From a virus (Duplodnaviria; Caudoviricetes), in the IMG/VR virus record IMGVR_UViG_3300021399_000113, positions 1 to 64,000 of that record: a stretch of 64,000 nucleotides of DNA. The stretch is one strand, 5' to 3'. A program made the translations under genes and the position numbers. Numbering within the stretch: the stretch's first letter is position 1; the number at the start of each line of letters is the position of its first letter. The notes under the pieces are model-generated. The model was not told where the DNA came from. It did no database searches and saw only the letters and a program-made list of their open reading frames with translations. This document shows, one piece after another, positions 1 to 40,751 of the stretch.

Positions 1-150
1 TAATTCGGTAGTAAAGTATATGCCACAATCGTACTCACAATTCTCAGCAATAGCACGTTTGGCATATTTCATTACATCTTTAGGCTTAATATTTCTATGA
101 CGTTTAATCCATGAAAATGTTCGATAGAAAAATCTTCTTATATAAAACAT
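1..150 (-). CDS. hypothetical protein, partial (runs off left edge)
   Basis: ATG at 150-148 with AGGAGG RBS and own promoter; frame open to position 1 (MFYIRRFFYRTFSW...). Confidence 0.7.
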   Translation of the reverse strand, partial: MFYIRRFFYRTFSWIKRHRNIKPKDVMKYAKRAIAENCEYDCGIYFTTEL

Positions 151-173
151 TGTATAAGTCCTCCTTTGTGAAC

Positions 174-202
174 AGTATAGCATAGAAAATAAAATTTGTC
201 AA
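174..202 (-). promoter_or_regulatory. sigma70/sigmaA-type promoter
   Basis: TTGACA-N17-TATACT on minus strand, with TG extended -10. Confidence 0.8.
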
Positions 203-265
203 TATTGTATAATATCGTATAGGAATGAACATTAGTTTCTTTATATTAAAGAGGATTAAAATAAA

Positions 266-3200
266 ATGTCAATCGTAAACCCAACAACAAATATAAGTTA
301 TACAAATAAGGATTTTGAAACAATCTACCCAGAATTATTAGATTTGGTTTCAAAATTATCCTTGACTTGGAATCCATCTATAAGTAATGAATCGGATGCT
401 GGTGTTGTTTTACTTAAAGTCATGGCACTTATGGGGGATAAAGTCAATTATAATATTGATAAAAATATCCTTGAAACATTTCCAACATCGGTGACCCAAG
501 ACAAGAACGCTTGGGCTTTATTTGAGCAACTTGGATATAATATGCACTGGCTGTTAAGCGGTACAACAGATGTATCATTTAAATACATCGGTGAGGATGA
601 AGGTACAACAGTTAATATCCCAAGATTTACAATGGTATCAGATATTGAAACTGAACACATCTATACACTCATAACACCGCTTATTTTTACAACAGGGGAG
701 GATACCAACAAAGCATTTACTGTTCCAGCAATTCAAGGAATTGCTACTAAATTTGAAGTAAATGGTGAAACCCTTATAACACCACAATATATTGATGATA
801 AAAATAGAGTATATTTTGCTGAATCAAATATTGCTGAAAATGGTATATTTATTAACAATAGCGGATATGAAAACTACGATGAATGGGTAAAGGTTGATAA
901 CTTATCAGTTCAAGCCCTTAATACAAAATGCTATAAGTTTGGTGTAGATATATCTACTGGTAACTGTTATATTGAGTTTCCATCTGACTATTCCACATTG
1001 TTTGACGCAGGAATAAATATTACTTATATTAAATCAGACGGACAGAATGGTAATATTGCGCCTTATGTTATCGAACAGTTCTATAATTTAGGAGAGACAG
1101 ATGTTGAGCTGAACACTGATACATATAGACTCGCTAACTTATCCGCAGTACAAAATGGTCAAAATAGCGAGACTATTGAAGATGCTTATAAGGCATATAA
1201 AAAGACCATTGGAGTATTTAACACTCTGAACTCATTAGCTGATTACACTAATTATATCACATCATCTAACCTTGTGTCAAATGGGTTTGTTACCGATAGA
1301 ACATGTGATATACAAGACAGTTATTATATTGTCACAGATGATTTAACTGGTATCAGTGGAAAGAAGTTGGTAATTGCTGAGAATAGCGGAACACCTAAGA
1401 TGCTCCCATTTGATTTAAAGATGTACCTCACGCAGTATGTACCTACAATAGATACAAAGACCAACTTTGATAAGACCTTTGATATTGTGTCTGCTAAGCC
1501 TCTGCAATCTGTACTGTCCTATATTGATTTAGTTAAGAATGTACAGCACAACTTTATTGATATAGAATCAAACAGATTGGTTATGCTGAAAAATAAATAC
1601 CCAATTTCTGTTAAAATTATTCCTCAGTACACACTTACTGAATTACAGATGTCAGAAATCAGAGAGAATATTAAGACATCATTATATAATTATCTCAATG
1701 CTAATAACATTGAATTTGGACAGCAAGTAACGTTTGATGATGTGTATGATATAATCACGAACAGTGATGAACGTATTAAAGCCATTGTGCTTGATGATTT
1801 AACATATTCGACAGTGGCTGTGTATTATGATGGAACGAATTTTAATGAAATTGATTTTAATGAAATTGATTTGAATAATAAGGACTTGATGAATGAGATG
1901 TACGCTAAATCTGTATTGTCAGGTCATACTCAATTATTACAGCCAGATAGGACATTTAATTATAGTGTTGAGCAGTCATCAAATGGTATAATTGAAAACA
2001 TTAGAACACTTGATACAAACGTTGATATAACATTATTTGCACCAAATGACCAGTCAAGTACATCTGCTAACTACACACTTAAAGAAAATGAAAACATACA
2101 GTTCTATGCTCCAAACCTCATTGATATGAATGAGTATAGCAACTATATTAAATACGAATATGTCAATACTGCTGACCCTACTTCAACACTTGCAAAAGAT
2201 GTTGACCACATGTTGTTATCGACAGAATCAGTAGCACTTTATTGGAAGACAGAAGACAGTGAAGATGCATATTATCATTATGCTAAGTACACTGCTGGTA
2301 GTATCCTTAAGCCATCATTTGTTATTGAGCAAGGTACAAATTATGGGGCAACTCTTCCACAAGGAGAGGGAGTAATTACAGACCCTACATTAAATGCACA
2401 TATTGCGAATGATGTAGAGCAATTACTTACTGCAACACGTACTCTCACCTATCGTGAGATTAATAACCATGTATTAGATAATGCTTATAATTATTGTTAT
2501 TGGATTACAAACAAGACAGTAACAATCAATGGGGCTACAAAGTATCAGTTATTCACTGACACAACAGATGAATATATTCTGCAATCTGGAGAATATTTTA
2601 TCTTCACGAATGCAGGTTATAGTGAATTAAACATCTTAGGGTCTGGTACAAAAATCACCCGTAACAGAATTGGTTTAACCCCTTGTGAACCTTGGTATGT
2701 AGATGCTATTGACTATTCGAAGATTTTATCTGAGGGTATTTCAGTATTCTCTGATGAAAGTTGGAAAGTGTTCAGAGGGGCAGATGTAACCTTAGACGTT
2801 ACAGAAATGCAGTTTATTAATTTGGGTAAAGGTACAGAATTACTTGTAACTCGTACTGATACTACAAAGCCTCTTGCATTTAATAACAGCGGTCTTGTTT
2901 ATAACACTTCTGTATTGGCTGATTTTAATATCACATATAGATTAGTTGACAGCACAACCTATGAATATCTTCCAAGCATTGTTAATAGTAGCATTGCATG
3001 GAGTGGTAGGTCAGTATTAGACGTTTCAATGTCGAGTGAATCTGCACAAAATCTTTATGTAAATCAAAGTATTGTAGCACATTTAGTTGACGGAACGTCC
3101 GAAACCTTAACGGGTATAGGTACAACAGTAGCAGACTGTTTAAGGATTATTCCTAACGTTACCCTTGATTTATCTGGTGGTATTGGTATTCCTACGGACA

Positions 3201-3826
3201 TTACAGATATAAATGGAAATGTTAGTTACCTTAAGCTGTATTCGTTTAATCTGGCAACGAGAAGTGATGAGACTAATGTTAAGTTTATGGCAAGTGGAAA
3301 TGTTGATGTTGTGTTCACAACATCAACAACTTATGATATTATATTTACTTTACCAGTAGGTGATTACTTACTTCCATTAGTAAATAACACAAATGTATTA
3401 TCCCATCTTACATTAAAGGGTGGTCACACAAATACAACACAAGCAACACTGTTTGACATTACAGCAACTGAATCAGATTTTTCAGCTCAGAAGACGCATT
3501 ACATTAAGTTATCAATAACAGACGATGGAGTGCCATATAAATTATCGGTTGTAATAACTCGTACAAGTGGTTCTTCAAGTCAAAAGATAACTCTTAAAAA
3601 TGCCATTAAGTATACAGTTCCTACAGAAGTTGTATACGCTGATATTATGGATAAAATCAGAGAGCTTGATACAGATAATATATTTGATTACTCATATGAG
3701 GTGGCAGAGGCTGATTTAGTAGAAAATCCATTCATTGCCGCATCATACTTCTCTGATGACCACATATATAATAAGTATTGCATTTGTCAGTTGTCAGACT
3801 TATCAATATCAATAATTAACAGGTAA
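266..3826 (+). CDS. baseplate wedge protein (T4 gp6/baseplate J-like N-terminus)
   Basis: YTNKDF...W...ESDAGVVLL...YNID..ILE.F and G...ETIE motifs typical of baseplate wedge proteins; 1186 aa. Confidence 0.8.
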   Translation: MSIVNPTTNISYTNKDFETIYPELLDLVSKLSLTWNPSISNESDAGVVLLKVMALMGDKVNYNIDKNILETFPTSVTQDKNAWALFEQLGYNMHWLLSGTTDVSFKYIGEDEGTTVNIPRFTMVSDIETEHIYTLITPLIFTTGEDTNKAFTVPAIQGIATKFEVNGETLITPQYIDDKNRVYFAESNIAENGIFINNSGYENYDEWVKVDNLSVQALNTKCYKFGVDISTGNCYIEFPSDYSTLFDAGINITYIKSDGQNGNIAPYVIEQFYNLGETDVELNTDTYRLANLSAVQNGQNSETIEDAYKAYKKTIGVFNTLNSLADYTNYITSSNLVSNGFVTDRTCDIQDSYYIVTDDLTGISGKKLVIAENSGTPKMLPFDLKMYLTQYVPTIDTKTNFDKTFDIVSAKPLQSVLSYIDLVKNVQHNFIDIESNRLVMLKNKYPISVKIIPQYTLTELQMSEIRENIKTSLYNYLNANNIEFGQQVTFDDVYDIITNSDERIKAIVLDDLTYSTVAVYYDGTNFNEIDFNEIDLNNKDLMNEMYAKSVLSGHTQLLQPDRTFNYSVEQSSNGIIENIRTLDTNVDITLFAPNDQSSTSANYTLKENENIQFYAPNLIDMNEYSNYIKYEYVNTADPTSTLAKDVDHMLLSTESVALYWKTEDSEDAYYHYAKYTAGSILKPSFVIEQGTNYGATLPQGEGVITDPTLNAHIANDVEQLLTATRTLTYREINNHVLDNAYNYCYWITNKTVTINGATKYQLFTDTTDEYILQSGEYFIFTNAGYSELNILGSGTKITRNRIGLTPCEPWYVDAIDYSKILSEGISVFSDESWKVFRGADVTLDVTEMQFINLGKGTELLVTRTDTTKPLAFNNSGLVYNTSVLADFNITYRLVDSTTYEYLPSIVNSSIAWSGRSVLDVSMSSESAQNLYVNQSIVAHLVDGTSETLTGIGTTVADCLRIIPNVTLDLSGGIGIPTDITDINGNVSYLKLYSFNLATRSDETNVKFMASGNVDVVFTTSTTYDIIFTLPVGDYLLPLVNNTNVLSHLTLKGGHTNTTQATLFDITATESDFSAQKTHYIKLSITDDGVPYKLSVVITRTSGSSSQKITLKNAIKYTVPTEVVYADIMDKIRELDTDNIFDYSYEVAEADLVENPFIAASYFSDDHIYNKYCICQLSDLSISIINR

Positions 3827-5036: not shown

Positions 5037-5375
5037 ATGAAATACATTAAAAAGAAAAAGTTACCAATTATTACTTGTCCTTCTTGTGGATATGAATACT
5101 TACCAGAAGAAATATATATTCCGATGTTTGTGTTTGGTAAACCTCAAGGGATTATTAGAGATGAGAATGGTAAGATAGAATATTTCTTAGACCATACTAT
5201 GAATTTATCGGAAGATTTCATTTGTCACAAGTGTGGTAAAAAGATTGCAGTTACAGGTACGGTGCAATTTTCAACAAAAGAAGTAGTTAAAGAACAGATT
5301 GAATCAGAATATACCACAAGCAGATATAGAGATACAGATAAATATAATCTATCAGAATCAAATAAGATATTATGA
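5037..5375 (+). CDS. zinc-ribbon protein
   Basis: CPSC and CHKC pairs; GGAG RBS before ATG 5037. Confidence 0.7.
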   Translation: MKYIKKKKLPIITCPSCGYEYLPEEIYIPMFVFGKPQGIIRDENGKIEYFLDHTMNLSEDFICHKCGKKIAVTGTVQFSTKEVVKEQIESEYTTSRYRDTDKYNLSESNKIL

Positions 5376-7045
5376 TAACTATTGAAGAACGTAAAAGCAT
5401 AAAGTGTCCAACTGATACATCATTATTTGTAAGTTTTAATTATAATCAAAATATAGTTGCAGTTGTCAAAAATTTAGGCTTTTCTATTTATAATGCTAAA
5501 ACAAAAGAGTGGGAAGTAGGATTACAATACCTCTCAGACCTTATCACTAAATTATCAATGTATGATGAAATTACGTTGAATATACTGCCTACCAATTTAA
5601 ACGAGGATAGGGCTGATATTGTTTATCCCATAGAGGAAATTAAAACACCTTTATTTGATTATCAAAAAGATGGTGTGCAATTTGGATTAAATCATGACAA
5701 GTGGTTATTATTAGATGCTACTGGTTTAGGAAAATCCCTCACAATGATTTCCCTTGCGTATAATCTTAAAATGCAAGGAAAGATTAATAAGGTTTTAGTT
5801 ATATGTGGTATCAATGCCTTAAAGACAAACTGGAAGAAAGAGATAGAAAAGCACAGCGATTTATCTTGTCGAATACTCGGAGAGTATAAGAACAAAAAGG
5901 GAAACCTTGCAGTAGGTGGTGTTAAAGACAGACTTGCACAACTGCAATCTCCAATCAAAGAGTTCTTCACTATAACTAATATTGAGACATTAAGAGATGA
6001 TAATATTATCAAAGAATTAACAAAGAAAAAGGCTGTTAATAAATTTGATATGATTATTGTTGATGAAATCCATAGATGCAAAGATGCTGGGTCTGTTCAA
6101 GGGGCTAACTTATTAAAATTGCAAGCGCCTTATAAAGTTGGAATGACTGGTACAATTATTATGAACAATCCCTTAGATGTGTATGCGCCTTTGGAATTCA
6201 TAAATAAAGTCCACAAAGATTCCCTTACTGCTTTTAAACAATATTTTTGTAATTATAATAGTTTTAAACAGATAATAGGATTTAAGAATATATCTACTCT
6301 AAAGGATATATTAGGGGAGTGTTCGTTAAGAAGAACGAAAGATTTACTTCAGTTACCGCCCAAAACAATTATAAATGAATATGTTGATATGGATGCTAAA
6401 CATCAACAATTTTATCAACATATTGTAGATGGAGTTGTAGATGAAGTGGATAAGGTAAAAATATCAACTGCTTCTTTATTGGCAATGGTAACAAGGCTGA
6501 GACAAGCCACGGCACTTCCTTCTATATTAACAACGGAAAACATTCCTCCATCAAAAGTTAATAGATGTGTAGAATTAGTAAATGAGTTGGTAGAGAATGG
6601 GGAAAAGGTTGTTATCTTCTCTACTTTCAAAGATACTTGCTATGAGATTAGTAAGCAGTTACCATTTAAACATGTACTGTGTACAGGAAATGAAAAGGAT
6701 TTGATGCCCTATGCTGACCAGTTCCAAAATGATGATGAGTGTAAAGCTTTTATCGGAACATGGCAGAAGTGTGGTACTGGTATTACATTAACTAAAGGTA
6801 CATCAATGATATTTATTGATACTCCTTGGACAGATAGTGATTACTTACAAGCACAAGACAGAATCTATAGAATAGGTACAAATAAATCTGTTACTATTTA
6901 TAATTTGATTTGTACTGGGACAATAGATGAGCGTGTGTTACAGTTAGTAACAAGTAAAGGTGCTATATCAGATTACATTGTTGATGATAAAATCTCAGCA
7001 AACACATTGAATAGTTTAAGACAATATATAGAAGATTTAAAATAA
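5372..7045 (+). CDS. SNF2-family DEAD/DEAH helicase
   Basis: DATGLGKS, DEIH, TGT and QAQDRIYRIG motifs. Confidence 0.92.
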   Translation: MITIEERKSIKCPTDTSLFVSFNYNQNIVAVVKNLGFSIYNAKTKEWEVGLQYLSDLITKLSMYDEITLNILPTNLNEDRADIVYPIEEIKTPLFDYQKDGVQFGLNHDKWLLLDATGLGKSLTMISLAYNLKMQGKINKVLVICGINALKTNWKKEIEKHSDLSCRILGEYKNKKGNLAVGGVKDRLAQLQSPIKEFFTITNIETLRDDNIIKELTKKKAVNKFDMIIVDEIHRCKDAGSVQGANLLKLQAPYKVGMTGTIIMNNPLDVYAPLEFINKVHKDSLTAFKQYFCNYNSFKQIIGFKNISTLKDILGECSLRRTKDLLQLPPKTIINEYVDMDAKHQQFYQHIVDGVVDEVDKVKISTASLLAMVTRLRQATALPSILTTENIPPSKVNRCVELVNELVENGEKVVIFSTFKDTCYEISKQLPFKHVLCTGNEKDLMPYADQFQNDDECKAFIGTWQKCGTGITLTKGTSMIFIDTPWTDSDYLQAQDRIYRIGTNKSVTIYNLICTGTIDERVLQLVTSKGAISDYIVDDKISANTLNSLRQYIEDLK

Positions 7046-7073
7046 GAGACTGCAAAGGTCTCTTATTTTTTTT
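7041..7073 (+). terminator. rho-independent terminator
   Basis: AATAAGAGAC/GTCTCTTATT hairpin followed by T run. Confidence 0.85.
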
Positions 7074-7078
7074 AACTA

Positions 7079-7107
7079 TTGACAAATTCATTTTTTTGTG
7101 GTATTAT
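7079..7107 (+). promoter_or_regulatory. sigmaA-type early promoter
   Basis: TTGACA-N17-TATTAT. Confidence 0.8.
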
Positions 7108-7134
7108 CTCTGTGTGAAAGAGAGGTAATGAAGT

Positions 7135-7281
7135 ATGGACATCACAGTACGCATTAAGGAATACAGAAAGTATCTTGAAGGGTTACTGAAAGAGGCTGAG
7201 CGAAATTACGGTGAAGATTCAAATGAGTATGAGTACATGAAGGATGCTCTTGATGAGTTCAACAGAAACTTCGAGGTGTAA
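7135..7281 (+). CDS. small hypothetical protein (48 aa)
   Basis: GAGAGGT RBS directly after promoter; MDITVRIKEYRKY...; below ORF-track size cutoff. Confidence 0.7.
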   Translation: MDITVRIKEYRKYLEGLLKEAERNYGEDSNEYEYMKDALDEFNRNFEV

Positions 7282-7286
7282 TAACT

Positions 7287-7463
7287 ATGAATGAGTCATT
7301 TGCTATTGTAAGTGAGTTATATAAGAAATTAGATGAACTTACCAAGGTATACGATATTGTGAAGGATTGGGCATGTTATGCAGACGATAATCATGCAAAC
7401 GATAAAATGATAGAGCTGTGCCACATTCTTGGAATATCAGTAGGTTGGAGGTTTGATGAATGA
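7287..7463 (+). CDS. small hypothetical protein (58 aa)
   Basis: Fills gap, ATGA overlap with next gene. Confidence 0.6.
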   Translation: MNESFAIVSELYKKLDELTKVYDIVKDWACYADDNHANDKMIELCHILGISVGWRFDE

Positions 7464-35875: not shown

Positions 35876-36583
35876 GTGCTTAATAAGGAACAAATAGAAG
35901 AGAATAAAGCCAAGTTTCTTGAATTACTTGAAAAGATAAAAGAGTACAGAACTGGTGTTGATTGGGATAAGTTAACAAACTATCTTGAAACGTCTGGATT
36001 TTTTACTGCACCTGCAAGTAGACTTCTCCACTCAGCCTATATGGGTGGGCTGTGTGAACATTCACTCAATACTTATGAGGCTATGATGGTGTTGGTGGAT
36101 ATGACATTTCCAGATGAGGTTGTCACTGAGGAAGATGGCACAGTAAAGAGTAACCCTACGTGCCCTTATGCTTGGAATGTGCTGGCTACTGTTGCTCTGC
36201 TCCATGACATTGGAAAAGCAAACTTGTATGAAGCATCAGTGCGAAATAAAAAGGTGTACAGTGCATCGGGCACTAAGTATGACCAGTTAGGCAAATATGA
36301 TTGGATAAGTGAGCCAAGTTGGGAAAAGCGTGAGCTTGACCAGCGATTTATGTATGGAAATACTGAAGAGAATTCAGTGTTCAAATTACTTGAGTTTATG
36401 AAGCTCAGTAAAGAAGAGACAGTCGCTATTCTTCATCACAGCGGTTATTTCGCAGATAACTATGAACGCACCATAGAGTATGCCTATGCTTACTCTAAGT
36501 CTCCACTTTGTGCACTTCTACACCTCGCAGATGAATATGCAATGTATTTAATGGAGTGCAACGATTTAGTTAATTATGAATAA
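35876..36583 (+). CDS. HD-domain phosphohydrolase
   Basis: APAS...H...GGL.EHS, LLHDIGK, HH, AD. Confidence 0.85.
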   Translation: MLNKEQIEENKAKFLELLEKIKEYRTGVDWDKLTNYLETSGFFTAPASRLLHSAYMGGLCEHSLNTYEAMMVLVDMTFPDEVVTEEDGTVKSNPTCPYAWNVLATVALLHDIGKANLYEASVRNKKVYSASGTKYDQLGKYDWISEPSWEKRELDQRFMYGNTEENSVFKLLEFMKLSKEETVAILHHSGYFADNYERTIEYAYAYSKSPLCALLHLADEYAMYLMECNDLVNYE

Positions 36584-36950: not shown

Positions 36951-39053
36951 ATGGAATCATTAGCAGTAAAATACAGACCTCAGACTTTGGAAGAGATTGT
37001 CAGCCAAGAGAGTGTTACAAAAATTCTTGCACGACAAGTATCTGAGGGTAAAATAAAGAATTGCTATTTATTTACAGGTGCGTCTGGTTGTGGAAAAACT
37101 ACAACTGCACGTGCATTAGCAAGGTTGATTAATGGCAATTCTAATGGGGTGATTGAGGTAGATGGTGCTTCAAACAATGGGGTAGACAATATTCGTGCCC
37201 TTATCACTTCCGCTTCAGAACGTGCTATTGGGGCAGAATATAAGATTATAATCATGGATGAGTGCTTTACCGAGAACACTAACATCATCACCTCTGTAGG
37301 CAATAAGGCGATTAAGGATGTGCAAGTGGGCGATTTAGTCCTTACATTAGATGGATTTAAAAAGGTTGTTAAGACTTTTAATAAAGAAATTGATAGTAAC
37401 CGTCTTGTGTCCGTTAAACTTAATAATTCAAAAAAGGTTGATGTTACAGACAACCATTTGTTTTTAACAGTGAATGGTTGGGTAAAAGCAAAAGACTTGA
37501 GAGAGGGCGATGTTTTAATTGACAATCAAAGTGTGTCCCGTTTGTGGCAAGGAATATCAGACACGGAACACAACTTGTTCGATGGAATGTGGACGAATAC
37601 TTCAGTGGCAACAGAGGCACAAAAAGTATTCTCCCAAAAAGTACACGCATACTTGTGTAATTTGTGGAAAGATGTGGGAAACAACACACAGAAGAACACC
37701 GCAGACCTGTTCAATGGAATGCTATTCGACACTGCTTACAAAAAGGCAGAAGGAGCAATATGCCTCCGAACTTGGGATGGAACGCAAGAAATTAGCATCA
37801 GAAAATGCGAAGAAGTGTCTGATACAGACACCCGAAATGAGGCTAAAGAGTTCAATCCGAATGAAGCTGTACAATCCAATGGCAAACAGTACATCAATAC
37901 AAAAGATGCTACAGACGAAGAATACTCATGGAACACTTCATTGTTGGACAGGACAGCGTGGGGGGAATGGACATTATACACACCAACAGTTGATTTTGAA
38001 AGAGAATTTGGGGAGTGCTTGGGAGTTGGAATATCCAATAGCAACGGGGATAACAAGGGCAAACAACCTAAACAAATATCCTACTTGTTACAAGTTAGAC
38101 CTTGCTTGTCCCGAAAAAATGATTGGGATAGAGGTGGATGGCAAAACTCACTTGCGGAAAGAACAACAATACAGAGACTTGAAGAAGACAAACTTTTTGG
38201 AACAGTTAGGGTGGAAAGTGTTGAGGTTTACCAACGCACAGATAGACACAGAATTGAAGAGGGTATTAGAAACAGTACAAGGGTATATGATTTAGCGGTA
38301 GAAGATTGCCCAACATATTTTGCAAACGGGGTGTGTGTACATAATTGCCATATGATAACAGTGCAAGGTTGGAATGCCTTTCTCAAAACGTTGGAAGAGC
38401 CTCCGAAATACACTATCTTTATGTTCTGCACTACAAACCCAGAGAAGATACCGATTACAGTTCTTAACCGATTACAGAGGTTTAATCTTCAGCGTATTCC
38501 AGCAAACAAGATAGAAGAGAGGTTAAATTTTATTTGTAAACAAGAATTGTTTACAAATTATAAAGAGGCTTGCGCTTACATCTCAAAGATTAGTAATGGA
38601 CAGATGAGAGACGCTATTACTGCCCTTGATAAGTGTGCAAGTTATGACACTGATTTGTCTATTGATAAGGTACTGTTTGCTTTGGGAAACTTCTCCTATG
38701 ATATGTTCTTTGATTTACTCAACGCTATCATAGATGATAATGAGGGGGCAGTACTACAGATTATCAACAGTATTTACTATGATGGTAAGGATTTAAATCA
38801 GTTTATAATCAGTTTCACAGCTTTTATTCTTGATGTAACCAAGTATCTTATTTTTGGAAACTTTGATGTTCTTCAGATACCTACATCATACCAGAATGCG
38901 TTGGACAATGTAATTAAGATAGAAAACGTGCAGTTATATTATAATTATCTAATTGATATGTTGTACAAGCTGAGAGAGGCAGTTAAGTTTGACACTGACA
39001 TTAAATCCACTTCGGAAATTTTATTCTTAAAGATGGCAAGGAACATCGAATGA
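36951..39053 (+). CDS. dnaX: clamp loader ATPase (Pol III gamma/tau-like) containing an intein
   Basis: KYRP, GASGCGKTT, DE|CHM after splicing, NAFLKTLEEPP, G.MRDA. Confidence 0.93.
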   Translation: MESLAVKYRPQTLEEIVSQESVTKILARQVSEGKIKNCYLFTGASGCGKTTTARALARLINGNSNGVIEVDGASNNGVDNIRALITSASERAIGAEYKIIIMDECFTENTNIITSVGNKAIKDVQVGDLVLTLDGFKKVVKTFNKEIDSNRLVSVKLNNSKKVDVTDNHLFLTVNGWVKAKDLREGDVLIDNQSVSRLWQGISDTEHNLFDGMWTNTSVATEAQKVFSQKVHAYLCNLWKDVGNNTQKNTADLFNGMLFDTAYKKAEGAICLRTWDGTQEISIRKCEEVSDTDTRNEAKEFNPNEAVQSNGKQYINTKDATDEEYSWNTSLLDRTAWGEWTLYTPTVDFEREFGECLGVGISNSNGDNKGKQPKQISYLLQVRPCLSRKNDWDRGGWQNSLAERTTIQRLEEDKLFGTVRVESVEVYQRTDRHRIEEGIRNSTRVYDLAVEDCPTYFANGVCVHNCHMITVQGWNAFLKTLEEPPKYTIFMFCTTNPEKIPITVLNRLQRFNLQRIPANKIEERLNFICKQELFTNYKEACAYISKISNGQMRDAITALDKCASYDTDLSIDKVLFALGNFSYDMFFDLLNAIIDDNEGAVLQIINSIYYDGKDLNQFIISFTAFILDVTKYLIFGNFDVLQIPTSYQNALDNVIKIENVQLYYNYLIDMLYKLREAVKFDTDIKSTSEILFLKMARNIE
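37263..38345 (+). mobile_element. intein (361 aa) inserted in Walker B of DnaX
   Basis: Starts CFTENT after DE; block B VTDNHLF; block F VYDLAVE; ends VHN followed by extein Cys. Confidence 0.95.
37519..38295 (+). CDS. Zn-repeat + Vsr/DUF559 (EDxHD-type) endonuclease, nested in +1 frame inside the intein
   Basis: CPVCGK...TCSMEC twice; EY, YKLDLA, IEVDGKTH, RD...L..LGWKVLRFTN; TTG start. Confidence 0.85.
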   Translation: MTIKVCPVCGKEYQTRNTTCSMECGRILQWQQRHKKYSPKKYTHTCVICGKMWETTHRRTPQTCSMECYSTLLTKRQKEQYASELGMERKKLASENAKKCLIQTPEMRLKSSIRMKLYNPMANSTSIQKMLQTKNTHGTLHCWTGQRGGNGHYTHQQLILKENLGSAWELEYPIATGITRANNLNKYPTCYKLDLACPEKMIGIEVDGKTHLRKEQQYRDLKKTNFLEQLGWKVLRFTNAQIDTELKRVLETVQGYMI

Positions 39054-39841
39054 TTAAGTTTCAAGATGATATTATCAACAAAATAGATACTACTGAGTTA
39101 AAAGATTTCCCCCACACATTGCTTTTGTTGGGGGATAGAGGCTGTGGAAAACACACTGTGTCCAACTATGTCTCTGAGACTAAAGGATTGCCTCTGTTTG
39201 ATATTACAGAAAGCCTTGACCTTGATACTCTTAATGGGATATACACAAATACGACATCCGCTATTTATCTGATAAATGCAGACAGCATTACAATAAAAGA
39301 GCAGAATGTTATATTGAAGTTCTTGGAAGAGCCATCAGACCTTATTTACATCATTCTATTATGTTCAAATAAGGCTATGCTGTTACCGACAATAACAAAT
39401 AGATGTGCAGTATGGGAGTTCCATAAACATACAAAAGAGGAACTTAAAGAATTTACTAATGATGAAAATGTGCTGGCTCTTTGTACAACAGTGGGACAGA
39501 TATTGGATTGTCAGACATTTGACTTAGTAGAAATGCAAGCCTATTGCACTAAGATATTTGAATGTATAAATCGTGCCAGCGTTCCCAATATTCTCTACGC
39601 TCTCCCCAAACATATAGCGTGGAAGGGTGAAAAAGATTTATACCCTATTGACATATTGTTCAAAATATTATATAATACAGTGTGCGATATGGTAATTAGT
39701 GGATATAATTGTTTTGATATGTGGGAACTTACACATAAATTCATTAATGATTTAAATATCCCAAACATTGACAAGAAACAGCGATATGAGAAATATTTGA
39801 TAGATTTACAGAATTGGTATAAGTATAAGGATGAGCATTGA
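39050..39841 (+). CDS. holB: clamp loader delta'-like subunit
   Basis: HTLLLLG.RGCGK, QNVILKFLEEP, LLPTITNRC. Confidence 0.8.
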   Translation: MIKFQDDIINKIDTTELKDFPHTLLLLGDRGCGKHTVSNYVSETKGLPLFDITESLDLDTLNGIYTNTTSAIYLINADSITIKEQNVILKFLEEPSDLIYIILLCSNKAMLLPTITNRCAVWEFHKHTKEELKEFTNDENVLALCTTVGQILDCQTFDLVEMQAYCTKIFECINRASVPNILYALPKHIAWKGEKDLYPIDILFKILYNTVCDMVISGYNCFDMWELTHKFINDLNIPNIDKKQRYEKYLIDLQNWYKYKDEH

Positions 39842-40751
39842 GGAATTAAAGCAGACAATTGAAAAGGGGAGCTGTCCATATCATGCTTTGATATTTGATT
39901 GTTCAAAGAGTGGGACGTTTATTGCAGAGCAATACATCAAGCAGATTGCTTTATTATTAAATAAAGACGTTGTTGGAATAGATGACCTTTCAGTTGTAGA
40001 ATCTGTCAACGACATGTTTTATGTGTCAGATAATAACGTACATGTGTATCATACAGATAACCTTGAAAAGTTGGACTATACAGATGCAGAGTTGTCGGAT
40101 TACTTTGTCTACATCATCGCAGATAAGGTGGATAAGACTATCAAAGAGCATTCAATCTATGTAGCACTTCCAGAATTAGAAGAGTGGTGTTTAAAGGATT
40201 TATTGTTCTCTTGCTGTGAGGGGGCAGATGAAGATGACCTTGAAAAACTTTTTAATCTGGTAAAAGCTAATCCTTTTAGAGTACAGCAAGAGATAGATAG
40301 GTTGTCCCTATTTCCTTCAGTTGAGCGTAAATACACGCTTAAAAGTTTTCTGTCCGATGGAATATATGATGATTTAAACACAGACACCACATTTGAGTTG
40401 GTCAATGCAATCTTACATAAAGACCGAAAAAAGATTGTGGTGATGCTTAAAAATCTTGATAAGATGGATATAAATGGATTTGGTTTGGCAAGTTTATTGT
40501 ACACACAATTTCGAAATGTAATTCTGGTGCAGTTATCCAAGACAAAAACAACAGAAGTTACTGGGTTACCATCAAATCAGATATACGCAATAAATAAATA
40601 TTCCACTGGGTACTACTCAAAAGACCAATTATTAAGTATATTTAAGCTGTTAACAGATGTACCTACATTGGTTAAGATGGGTAAACTTCCAGCGGAAGAT
40701 ATGATAAATTATATAATTATAAAAATAATGTTAATCGGAGGAATGACATAA
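39831..40751 (+). CDS. holA: clamp loader delta-like subunit
   Basis: QEIDRL, FELVNAIL..D, VKMG C-terminus; position after dnaX-holB. Confidence 0.7.
   Translation: MSIEELKQTIEKGSCPYHALIFDCSKSGTFIAEQYIKQIALLLNKDVVGIDDLSVVESVNDMFYVSDNNVHVYHTDNLEKLDYTDAELSDYFVYIIADKVDKTIKEHSIYVALPELEEWCLKDLLFSCCEGADEDDLEKLFNLVKANPFRVQQEIDRLSLFPSVERKYTLKSFLSDGIYDDLNTDTTFELVNAILHKDRKKIVVMLKNLDKMDINGFGLASLLYTQFRNVILVQLSKTKTTEVTGLPSNQIYAINKYSTGYYSKDQLLSIFKLLTDVPTLVKMGKLPAEDMINYIIIKIMLIGGMT

Follow-up and report, generated by a model that had tools for sequence, protein, structure and literature searches.

A phage clamp-loader intein overlapped in the +1 frame by a candidate zinc-ribbon and Vsr/DUF559 homing endonuclease gene

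We analyzed a stretch of 64,000 nucleotides (hereafter the window; positions 1 to 64,000 of IMG/VR record IMGVR_UViG_3300021399_000113, Duplodnaviria; Caudoviricetes), in which a phage clamp-loader gene is interrupted by an intein and the intein DNA carries a second long open reading frame (ORF) in +1. The source phage is a gut phage. The host ORF matched the Pfam families DNA_pol3_delta2 (73.9 bits), AAA, and DNA_pol3_gamma3, as well as PHROG 5846, "clamp loader of DNA polymerase" (E-value 9.6e-73). The insertion point of the intein separates E from C in the Walker B sequence DE/CH. Read in the host frame (frame 0), the locus contains the following features:

36951 to 39053, + strand: host gene, phage clamp-loader large subunit (DnaX-like AAA+); ORF for a 700-aa precursor with intein
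36951 to 37262, + strand: N-extein, 104 aa, its last residues the Walker B sequence ...IIIMDE (translation)
37263 to 38345, + strand: intein, frame 0, 361 aa, C1 to H360 N361 (Pfam Intein_splicing), followed by the +1 Cys at 38346-38348
37263 to 37547, + strand: Hint N-terminal splicing part, residues 1-95, blocks A and B (AlphaFold2; PT-HINT, Hint_2)
37548 to 38204, + strand: frame-0 linker, residues 96-314, a read-through peptide without recognizable domain (Pfam, AlphaFold2)
38205 to 38345, + strand: Hint C-terminal splicing part, residues 315-361, with strand VRVESVEV, block F VYDLAVE, and block G VHN (AlphaFold2)

The frame-0 insertion has the anatomy of a class 1 Hint-domain intein. It begins with CFTENT, carries TDNH as block B and VYDLAVE as block F, and ends in VHN followed by C. 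Intein_splicing (53.3 bits, cut-off 35.8) and PT-HINT (38.5 bits, cut-off 27.7) both matched, as did Hint_2. The residues that define class 1 inteins are present and conserved across 48 homologous inteins: the block A nucleophile C1 is invariant, the block B TxxH is T62-D-N-H65 with H65 invariant, and the C-terminal His-Asn plus Cys/Ser/Thr takes the form VHN/C, in which N361 never varies and H360 is kept in at least 90%. In approximately 99 of 109 relatives, the intein likewise spans C1 to (H/S)N and is followed by C. AlphaFold2 predicted a Hint fold with beta-rich N and C parts and most blocks at pLDDT 91-98. The N part was modeled as all beta (block pLDDT 94-98 over residues 1-90, then 77 over 91-100), and the C part with a strand at residues 315-322 (83, 73, and 71 over residues 311-340, then 97, 97, and 91 to the end).

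Between the two splicing parts, the frame-0 linker showed no recognizable domain. The best Pfam match over intein residues 85-300 was no better than E 0.23, most linker blocks had pLDDT 36-58 and two came near 70, and 149 residues of the entire frame-0 model fell below 50. This segment of roughly 220 residues is a hydrophilic, probably disordered read-through peptide. It does contain two motif pairs, SRLWQG..LFDGM and CNLWKD..LFNGM, which the first-pass annotation had described as an echo of repeats in the other frame.

The same DNA read in +1 encodes a complete protein, with these features:

37503 to 37521, + strand: likely translation start of the nested gene, with SD-like GAGGG at 37503-07, a +1-frame TAA at 37516-18, and TTG at 37519-21
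37519 to 38295 (stop included), + strand: nested +1 gene, a 258-aa zinc-ribbon and Vsr/DUF559 (EDxHD-type) putative homing endonuclease (ORF, DUF559)
37534 to 37590, + strand: zinc ribbon 1, C6-x2-C9 ... C20-x3-C24 (translation; DUF2116 treble clef match)
37654 to 37722, + strand: zinc ribbon 2, C46-x2-C49 ... C64-x3-C68 (conservation in relatives)
37972 to 38292, + strand: nuclease catalytic domain, residues 152-258 (VIA-align), with E205, D207, H211, and D220 at 38131-38178
38205 to 38292, + strand: zone constrained in both frames, formed by the Hint C strand and loop in frame 0 and by the endonuclease last strand GWKVLRF and C-terminal helices in +1

The nested ORF has 258 codons, starts with TTG, and ends at a TAG within the codons for D343/L344 of intein block F. 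Its product matched DUF559 at 48.7 bits (cut-off 20.6) and, over residues 6-35, the DUF2116 treble clef at 27.6 bits (cut-off 26.8). Relatives of the product formed 2,964 representative clusters, and all 59 of the relatives compared matched DUF559. In these 59 sequences, the key residues are conserved. In the EDxHD motif, IEVDGKTH...RD, D207 and H211 are invariant and E205 and D220 occur in at least 90%; in zinc ribbon 2, C68 is invariant and C46, C49, and C64 occur in at least 90%. DUF559 was found in the +1 frame only, and the first-pass proposals of a 361-aa intein in the DnaX Walker B, a center free of nuclease motifs, and a +1 ORF with two zinc repeats and a Vsr/DUF559 domain that stops inside block F all stand.

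Predicted structure places the +1 product in the same superfamily as its sequence does. The model was confident (pLDDT 92.5), and VIA-align of residues 152-258 recovered the DUF559 protein 3HRL (Z 12.6, rmsd 1.3), I-Bth0305I 3R3P (Z 11.2, rmsd 2.4 over 88 residues), and Vsr 1CW0 (Z 10.1). These clear Z-scores came from VIA-align; a Foldseek search with the entire model returned nothing at E 0.001 or better. Profile searches against the PDB gave 3HRL at E 1.2e-11 and 3R3P at E 3.3e-4, and the catalytic motif aligned to AIEV.G...DK of 3R3P. I-Bth0305I, the founder of the EDxHD family (Taylor et al. 2011, PMC3239194), shares the Vsr-like fold and the E, D, H, D positions, but it is encoded by a group I intron and carries an N-terminal NUMOD/HTH, whereas the window enzyme lies inside an intein and carries zinc ribbons. 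The nearest solved relative is 3HRL rather than I-Bth0305I. Because Pfam found no NUMOD module in the +1 product (E up to 1) and two CxxC...CSxxC zinc ribbons are present instead, we file it with a zinc-ribbon branch of the Vsr/DUF559 homing-endonuclease superfamily and not as an I-Bth0305I orthologue. The N-terminal zinc ribbons differ from the NUMOD/HTH, and target recognition therefore cannot be read across from I-Bth0305I. By analogy, the enzyme may cleave element-free alleles site-specifically.

Both frames are kept by selection, which acts on openness in the host frame and at the protein level in +1. None of 73 codons before an AA/AG/GA codon ended in T, compared with a background T fraction of 0.41 (P = 1.1e-17). 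When synonymous codons of the +1 protein were randomized, frame 0 remained open in 0 of 2000 trials, with a mean of 19.6 stops, and three relatives only 35%-40% identical showed the same avoidance of frame-0 stops. This agrees with the first-pass suggestion that frame 0 is held open for the host gene. Among all ORFs of at least 150 codons in the window, the runner-up open run in an alternative frame was 107 codons, against 258 for the nested ORF. A stretch this long with both frames open lies well outside what chance would give.

Substitution patterns identify +1 as the coding frame of the overlap. Amino acid identity among relatives in this region was 37%-53% in +1 versus 28%-34% in frame 0, and codon-position variability phased to +1 was 0.39/0.34/0.52, with position 3 the most variable. 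In a variant strain from sheep gut, all six host-frame substitutions outside the overlap were synonymous and none of the seven inside it were, while three of those seven were synonymous in +1. Beyond stop avoidance, additional selection on the frame-0 linker of the window was not significant under a constrained codon-swap null (z -0.6 to +0.7). Family-wide, linkers were slightly low in hydrophobic residues (0.279 vs 0.288), with a P value inflated by relatedness. The sole clear requirement on the linker is the absence of stop codons. In the zone at 38205 to 38292, both predicted models place confident structured elements, and VRVESVE (frame 0, Hint C part) and GWKVLR (+1) are each invariant in four relatives.

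The two-frame layout is the prevailing state among relatives, which were obtained through protein searches only; the census describes the closest relatives fetched. Compared with deposited phages by blastn, the host gene gave no match, and a peptide-pattern scan of viral contigs with the frame-0 intein found no relative. Among the closest relatives, the endonuclease lay at +1 within an open host frame in 160 of 165 loci, or 118 of 123 distinct sequences, which answers the first-pass question whether both frames stay open in homologues. Hint-N upstream and Hint-C downstream were found together in 109 of the 118 nested relatives, and of 66 complete hosts, 63 matched Intein_splicing and 0 matched DUF559 in the host frame. 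Because the overprinted form is both dominant and deeply diverged, we interpret it as stable rather than transient, where the first-pass annotation had suggested a possible intermediate toward split inteins. The forms found in L001, L087, and L144 are free-standing. Two relatives carry stops in the host-frame linker, L148 (19 stops, a fractured state) and L121 (a single stop), which suggests that the fractured state can be reached from the overprinted form or can lead to it.

Two other readings of the locus were weighed. One is an assembly or sequencing artefact, in which an ordinary in-frame DUF559 intein had its middle shifted by two compensating indel errors. Inteins with Hint and DUF559 in one frame do exist (for example P0015, at L006 2398-4347), but a misframed, non-coding middle should hold about 20 stops and frame 0 holds none; the layout recurs in 118 distinct sequences from independent assemblies; and contigs from an independent sample showed 0 differences and 0 gaps, with the variant strain differing by substitutions only. 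We therefore do not consider the window layout an assembly error and give that reading a vanishingly small chance. The other is that a once in-frame endonuclease was mutated out of frame and is now a decaying, functionless relic in an intein on its way to a mini-intein. Intein endonucleases do commonly decay, as described in the homing-cycle model (bioRxiv 10.64898/2026.09.14.751524). Decay should, however, let +1 stops accumulate, yet both frames remain open in nearly all distinct relatives, the +1 ORF has stayed intact with a coding substitution pattern at the identities given above, and catalytic and zinc-binding residues, start position, and Shine-Dalgarno (SD) motif are conserved. A relic is accordingly very improbable.

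Sequence around the proposed start suggests that the nested gene would be translated by separate initiation at TTG 37519. The SD-like GAGGG lies 11 nt from the TTG and coincides with intein G-D codons. Relatives L004 and L005 have ATG at the position of the TTG, and across the family, the start was preceded by GGAG/GAGG/AGGA in 70 of 108 members versus a 12% background, with ATG in 62 of these 70. A free-standing homologue, P0004 (no contig on record), begins with MISKTCPICGKEYQT, aligned with the nested gene start. An RNA library yielded two contigs only, covering 37605-38025; these may derive from DNA and so are no proof of expression. Counts in a promoter/terminator scan were at chance level, which therefore lends no support to an internal promoter.

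A programmed +1 ribosomal frameshift would instead produce an N-extein-HintN-endonuclease fusion without separate initiation, and one mRNA carrying both frames with no independent promoter signal standing out would suit it. We consider this quite unlikely. A +1-frame stop lies directly 5' of the proposed start in the window (TAA), L003 (TGA), and L004 (TAG), and no slippery motif shared by four relatives was seen at the junction. The predominance of ATG at SD-preceded starts and the alignment of free-standing homologues to the same first residue also argue against a frameshift. Overall, as first proposed, the intein is contiguous, and the gene overprinted on its linker encodes an entire endonuclease and has a probable start of its own.

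The element occurs in unrelated host genes, and uninterrupted versions of its clamp-loader site exist. Hosts of the nested form are mostly clamp loaders and helicases (SNF2/DEAD), interrupted at DE/C sites, and endonucleases in unrelated host genes are up to 54% identical. The eight closest intein-free clamp loaders have an unbroken KIFIIDE/CHM.. sequence. Their exteins are 48%-56% identical, as near as those of intein-bearing relatives and interleaved with them; a near-identical intein-free allele was not found, and the clamp loaders with the nearest empty sites are about 50% identical. Distances between endonucleases, between Hint-N parts, and between exteins were all intercorrelated (Mantel r 0.62-0.68); much of the inheritance may therefore be vertical, and any current homing is putative.

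Such co-divergence, together with a layout stable over deep divergence, would also fit long vertical retention of a domesticated nuclease that no longer homes and, for example, cuts clamp-loader or helicase genes of competitor phages or regulates replication. This is improbable, because interleaved intein-free and intein-bearing alleles at similar extein distance, and one element family in clamp loaders and SNF2/DEAD helicases, are what is expected of a mobile element. We also note that cutting the empty site of a competitor is the same molecular act as homing into it.

The best explanation overall, and one we hold with considerable confidence, is a mobile intein that uses one DNA stretch for two proteins. 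In frame 0, ribosomes would make the full 700-aa precursor, in which Hint N (1-95) and Hint C (315-361) would assemble, cut out the intein, and ligate the exteins to give a clamp loader of 339 aa. In +1, separate initiation at the TTG behind the SD-like motif would yield the 258-aa endonuclease, whose two zinc ribbons would bind DNA while the Vsr/DUF559 domain cut through its E-D-H-D residues. By analogy to I-Bth0305I, the enzyme would cut intein-free alleles (..IIDE/CHM..) in co-infecting relatives, and repair would then copy the intein and nested gene into the cut alleles.

Out-of-frame and antisense endonucleases within inteins are an already known layout, so the first-pass description of a new third architecture was overstated. 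Two later papers credit such arrangements to Gorbalenya 1998 (10.1101/2025.01.02.630785; 10.64898/2026.09.14.751524), and the passages citing it disagree, placing the Synechocystis dnaX endonuclease antisense in one and in a same-strand alternative frame in the other. The cyanobacterial dnaX intein (bioRxiv 10.64898/2026.09.14.751524) resembles the window in being a contiguous intein in a DnaX-family clamp-loader gene, with an in-frame middle modeled at low confidence, a same-strand overlapping ORF with a nuclease fold and SD-like motifs upstream, and frame-dependent selection. By its published description, that nuclease is LAGLIDADG-like, in a "+2 ORF" on bacterial chromosomes, whereas the window enzyme is a zinc-ribbon and Vsr/DUF559 protein in +1 in a phage. 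Compared with inteins of this overlapping kind, the window has the same open host frame, a nuclease in the other frame only, and frame-dependent selection.

Non-canonical actinobacteriophage inteins (bioRxiv 10.1101/2025.01.02.630785) also keep the endonuclease out of frame, and their authors propose that a free-standing endonuclease gene invaded the intein and predict that such cases are under-annotated. There, Vsr-like (EDxHD-like) nucleases are antisense, the same-strand case is endonuclease VII-like in frame 3, and hosts are DNA polymerase, minor capsid, terminase, and thymidylate synthase genes. Those architectures were called rare, while here a large clade usually has the +1 Vsr-type. 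We did not find a same-strand Vsr-type version in the literature searched.

Two further systems are close to the window. In fractured genes (Dassa et al. 2009, PMC2677866), the halves of a split intein are separated by an endonuclease gene that is free-standing and of Vsr-like or GIY-YIG type. They share with the window the endonuclease superfamily, phage DNA-metabolism hosts, a common strand, and an endonuclease 3' end overlapping the C-terminal intein part. In them, the N-half ends at a stop codon, a spacer of 27-51 nt follows, and the C-half has its own start, whereas the window has none of these and its host frame is open for 700 codons; L148 does have the stop. The ShiLan insertion in phage methylases (Arsenault et al. 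2025, PMC11855218) likewise has an endonuclease overprinted on an in-frame, stop-free insertion. It lacks splicing domains, retains the insert in the protein, and hides an HNH nuclease with no detectable RBS; the window, by comparison, has full Hint domains and an SD-like motif.

We think it likely that the intein and +1 zinc-ribbon/Vsr-type endonuclease form one old, stable composite mobile element that is the normal state of this endonuclease clade, a description not found in the literature searched. Such an element may sit at the DE/CH (Walker B / DExH) codons in two or more unrelated phage ATPase families, clamp loaders and SF2 helicases, with a constant frame offset and a zone, about 30 codons long, where each frame encodes structured protein. 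It may be nearly absent from annotation, and the fractured (split-intein) and free-standing forms may be rare offshoots. As the first-pass annotation had anticipated, standard records pass over the nested gene: for one deposited phage of Vibrio, the record shows only a "putative helicase" there. Culturable carriers of the element may include Vibrio phages such as MN379460.1. P0006 appeared to be a free-standing 430-aa gene and is actually nested in a 1199-codon open host frame, so gene-caller tables are not to be trusted for telling free-standing from nested genes.

Gene callers and annotation rules that allow one frame per locus miss an entire nuclease family. Its compact enzymes, if sequence-specific as analogy suggests, target conserved ATPase motifs and could be mined as tools. 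At about 775 nt, the dual coding is among the longest and best-constrained phage-gene examples found here, with a clean signature of no T before AA/AG/GA. The Hint halves appear to tolerate about 220 residues of essentially unselected insert, suggesting that the splicing domain asks little of what lies between its parts. Natural variants differing in host-frame stops link contiguous inteins to the fractured genes of Dassa. Finally, inteins listed as endonuclease-less or decaying may hide endonuclease genes that are probably active, with consequences for how mobile inteins are judged to be and for the homing-cycle model.

The interrupted gene encodes a phage clamp loader, and ORF, motif and Pfam evidence confirmed both the intein within it and the nested +1 ORF that the first-pass annotation had described:

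36951-39053, plus strand: host ORF, clamp loader, 700 codons
37263-38345, plus strand: intein, 361 residues, inserted between ...IIIMDE and CHMITVQGWNAFLKTLEEPP
37519 (TTG) to 38293-95 (TAG), plus strand: nested +1 ORF, 258 open codons

The ends of the host ORF matched clamp-loader families (Pfam DNA_pol3_delta2, 73.9 bits, AAA and DNA_pol3_gamma3), and the ORF matched PHROG 5846, "clamp loader of DNA polymerase" (E 9.6e-73). The intein starts with CFTENT, contains TDNH and VYDLAVE, and ends in VHN followed by Cys+1, with a Pfam Intein_splicing score of 53.3 bits (cut-off 35.8). Profile searches of both frames gave a DUF559 match of 48.7 bits (cut-off 20.6) in the +1 product, which also matched a treble-clef zinc-ribbon family, and no Pfam family match in residues 85-300 of the frame-0 (host-frame) intein. 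The element is single copy in the 138.6-kb IMG/VR virus record, and the sequencing runs containing the window sequence are animal gut metagenomes. The neighbouring ORFs (35876-36583, 39050-39841 and 39831-40751) keep the same order in the window and in contig loci L003 and L004: upstream of the clamp loader come an HD-domain protein and a small ORF. On the 3' side are two more clamp-loader subunits, one delta'-like (DNA_pol3_delta2) and one delta-like (DNA_pol3_delta_C in relatives), followed in L003 and L004 by Metallophos and SbcC-like genes.

Sequence and predicted structure both place the +1 protein firmly in a nuclease family. An exhaustive search returned 2,964 representative clusters of relatives at E ≤1e-3, nearly all 140-340 aa, and the start of a free-standing homologue, P0004 (MISKTCPICGKEYQT), aligns residue for residue with that of the nested ORF. 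The AlphaFold2 model (59-sequence alignment) had a mean pLDDT of 92.5, and its residues 152-258 resembled the DUF559 protein 3HRL (Z 12.6, rmsd 1.3 Å), the I-Bth0305I catalytic domain 3R3P (Z 11.2) and Vsr 1CW0 (Z 10.1); a profile search with the +1 family found 3HRL at 1.2e-11 and 3R3P at 3.3e-4. E205, D207, H211 and D220 are the counterparts of the EDxHD composite motif defined for the I-Bth0305I family (PMC3239194), with D207 and H211 invariant and E205 and D220 present in at least 90% of aligned sequences. The N-terminal half contains two CxxC...CSxxC zinc ribbons, whereas I-Bth0305I has NUMOD/HTH modules instead.

Assembly or sequencing error, including the compensating indels that the first-pass annotation had named as a possible refutation, was ruled out as the source of this layout. 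Contigs from an independent sample showed 0 differences and 0 gaps over nearly all of the stretch compared, including the whole intein, and substitutions were the only differences from the window in a variant strain from sheep gut and in a contig from an RNA library. Outside the overlap, all 6 changes were third-position and synonymous in the host frame, while each of the 7 inside it altered a host-frame residue; read in +1, three of these were synonymous and the rest were V8I, T18K, T45A and M52V. In this small sample (6 + 7 changes), the selected frame plainly switches at the overlap boundary.

The layout is conserved across divergent relatives. Clamp loaders at L003, L004 and L005 carry homologous inteins with only 35-40% frame-0 identity, and all have a 246-261-codon +1 ORF encoding the same protein. 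Among the best 160 viral and metagenome loci encoding endonuclease relatives plus earlier loci (165 in total), another frame was open across the entire endonuclease gene in 160 (118 of 123 distinct loci), and this open host frame always placed the endonuclease at +1. Hint-N upstream and Hint-C downstream were found in the host frame at 109 of the 118 distinct nested loci (of the remaining nine, six are truncated where the contig stops), and about 99 of these 109 inteins span C1 to (H/S)N|C. Complete host ORFs (n = 66) matched Intein_splicing in 63 cases, DNA_pol3_delta2 in 53 and Helicase_C, alongside ResIII, SNF2 or DEAD, in 11. DUF559 matched none of these 66 in the host frame and all 59 aligned +1 products.

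Several helicase-type hosts (L096:697-3411, L111:1513-3411, L041:889-3360 and the L143 host ORF, 2-3616) have a second Hint-N-like match far upstream, starting PLYSKVLTPNGF or similar and lying near the P-loop in L143; these genes may harbour another intein, one with a residue other than Cys at its start. The in-frame combination of Hint and DUF559 also exists, as seen in P0015 (L006:2398-4347), an intein in an unrelated 649-aa phage protein. On the same contig, the large ORF that follows (5320-7344; NUDIX/DUF5661) had four separate Hint-N profile matches, which suggests several Hint-like inserts or repeats. In 40 deposited phage records, including Vibrio phage Rostov M3 (L168; MN379460.1 19671-22652), tblastn located the endonuclease within CDS features bearing no name other than "putative helicase", "DNA helicase", "P-loop NTPase" or "coil containing protein", and the nested gene was not annotated in the one deposited record inspected.

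Openness of both frames exceeds chance. The next longest alternative-frame open run inside window ORFs of at least 150 codons is 107 codons. A frame-0 stop arises only where a T-ending +1 codon precedes a codon starting AA, AG or GA; T-ending codons occupied 0 of 73 such sites in the window (background T fraction 0.41; P 1.1e-17) and 0 of 80-84 sites in L003, L004 and L005. With the +1 protein fixed and synonymous codons redrawn from the window's codon usage, none of 2000 randomisations was free of frame-0 stops (mean 19.6). Across the overlap in the window and these three loci, +1 products were 37-53% identical compared with 28-34% for frame-0 products, and nucleotide variability at +1 codon positions 1, 2 and 3 was 0.39, 0.34 and 0.52, as expected of a coding frame. 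Overlap G+C (37519-38295) was 41.7%, compared with 36.0% for the exteins and 35.5% across the window, consistent with avoidance of T at +1 wobble positions, with a foreign origin of the element, or with both.

The frame-0 model (48 homologues) was confident for residues 1-95 (block pLDDT 94-98 for 1-90) and ranged from 71 to 97 for residues 315-361. Residues 96-314 scored low (most blocks mean 36-58; 149 model residues below 50). Strand 315-322 of the Hint C-part (VRVESVEV) shares bases with the endonuclease's conserved GWKVLRF strand, so that in the models about 30 codons (38205-38292) are structured in both frames; neither peptide motif varies among the four relatives. Under a null of synonymous codon swaps preserving the endonuclease, codon counts and frame-0 openness, extra shaping of the frame-0 linker was not significant in the window, and family-wide the linker showed only a small deficit of hydrophobic residues. 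The endonuclease sequence thus accounts for most of its hydrophilic character.

Expression most likely proceeds by internal initiation on the host mRNA, given the conserved start, its Shine-Dalgarno (SD) motif and the upstream +1 stop. The start codon position is conserved (TTG, TTG, ATG and ATG in the four relatives) and follows a GGAG or GAGGG formed by the intein's conserved G-D codons; in the window GAGGG lies 11 nt upstream of TTG 37519. A strict SD motif precedes the start in 70 of 108 family members (background rate 12%), 62 of these 70 starting with ATG. Ribosomal frameshifting would also yield the endonuclease from this mRNA, but it is disfavoured by a +1-frame stop directly upstream of the start in three of the four relatives (in the window, a TAA adjoining the TTG) and by the lack of a slippery motif common to the four. 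A promoter scan gave no signal standing out for the nested gene. Part of the overlap (37605-38025) is represented, with 4 substitutions and no gaps, by two contigs of a sheep-gut metatranscriptomic library (run X5), a hint of transcription from a library possibly with DNA carry-over.

The intein is patchily distributed. The eight closest clamp loaders in a C-extein-only search lack it and read KIFIIDE|CHM.., indicating that Cys+1 is native to the extein, and they are as close to the window in extein identity (48-56%) as intein-bearing relatives (≤53%). Distances for the endonuclease, non-overlapped Hint-N and extein were inter-correlated (Mantel r 0.62-0.68), so the parts largely move as a unit and along with their hosts. 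Some endonucleases in helicases share about 54% identity with ones in clamp loaders despite unrelated exteins, which suggests past moves between host families sharing the DE|CH codons.

Sequence, selection and conservation evidence support the core interpretation of a contiguous intein with an overprinted endonuclease. The first-pass annotation's proposal of a new third architecture was not borne out, since overprinting is already known. Dassa et al. 2009 reported split inteins whose halves flank a Vsr-like endonuclease gene, at loci with a stop, then a spacer of 27-51 nt and a new start (PMC2677866); the window does not fit this definition of fractured genes. An actinophage survey reported antisense Vsr-like and frame-3 endonuclease VII-like genes in contiguous inteins, Vsr-like endonucleases being otherwise known from split inteins only (bioRxiv 10.1101/2025.01.02.630785), whereas the Vsr-type gene here is on the same strand at +1. 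A 2026 preprint, which credits the idea to Gorbalenya 1998, reported a same-strand out-of-frame gene in a cyanobacterial dnaX intein (bioRxiv 10.64898/2026.09.14.751524); that nuclease is LAGLIDADG-like, unlike the zinc-ribbon/Vsr type here. The ShiLan element has an overprinted HNH gene without splicing domains (PMC11855218). In the literature searched, we found no paper on the same-strand +1 zinc-ribbon/Vsr-type form at DE|CH in phage clamp loaders and helicases, nor a description of it as the dominant state of a large clade.

Five of the 165 loci were not nested. L001, L087 and L144 are free-standing, lacking Hint flanks. L148 (2-2122) and L121 (1795-3936) each have an intact +1 endonuclease, and their Hint-N and Hint-C share one host frame; the first half of the L148 linker contains 19 host-frame stops, a fractured layout, and the L121 linker a single TAG. 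Both could be fractured or split-intein variants that arose naturally, or else dead hosts, and they place the overprinted and fractured states adjacent in sequence space. From its great majority and deep divergence, we argue that the overprinted form is a stable solution rather than a passing stage, and the element is a striking, clean, widespread and unannotated case of selected dual coding.
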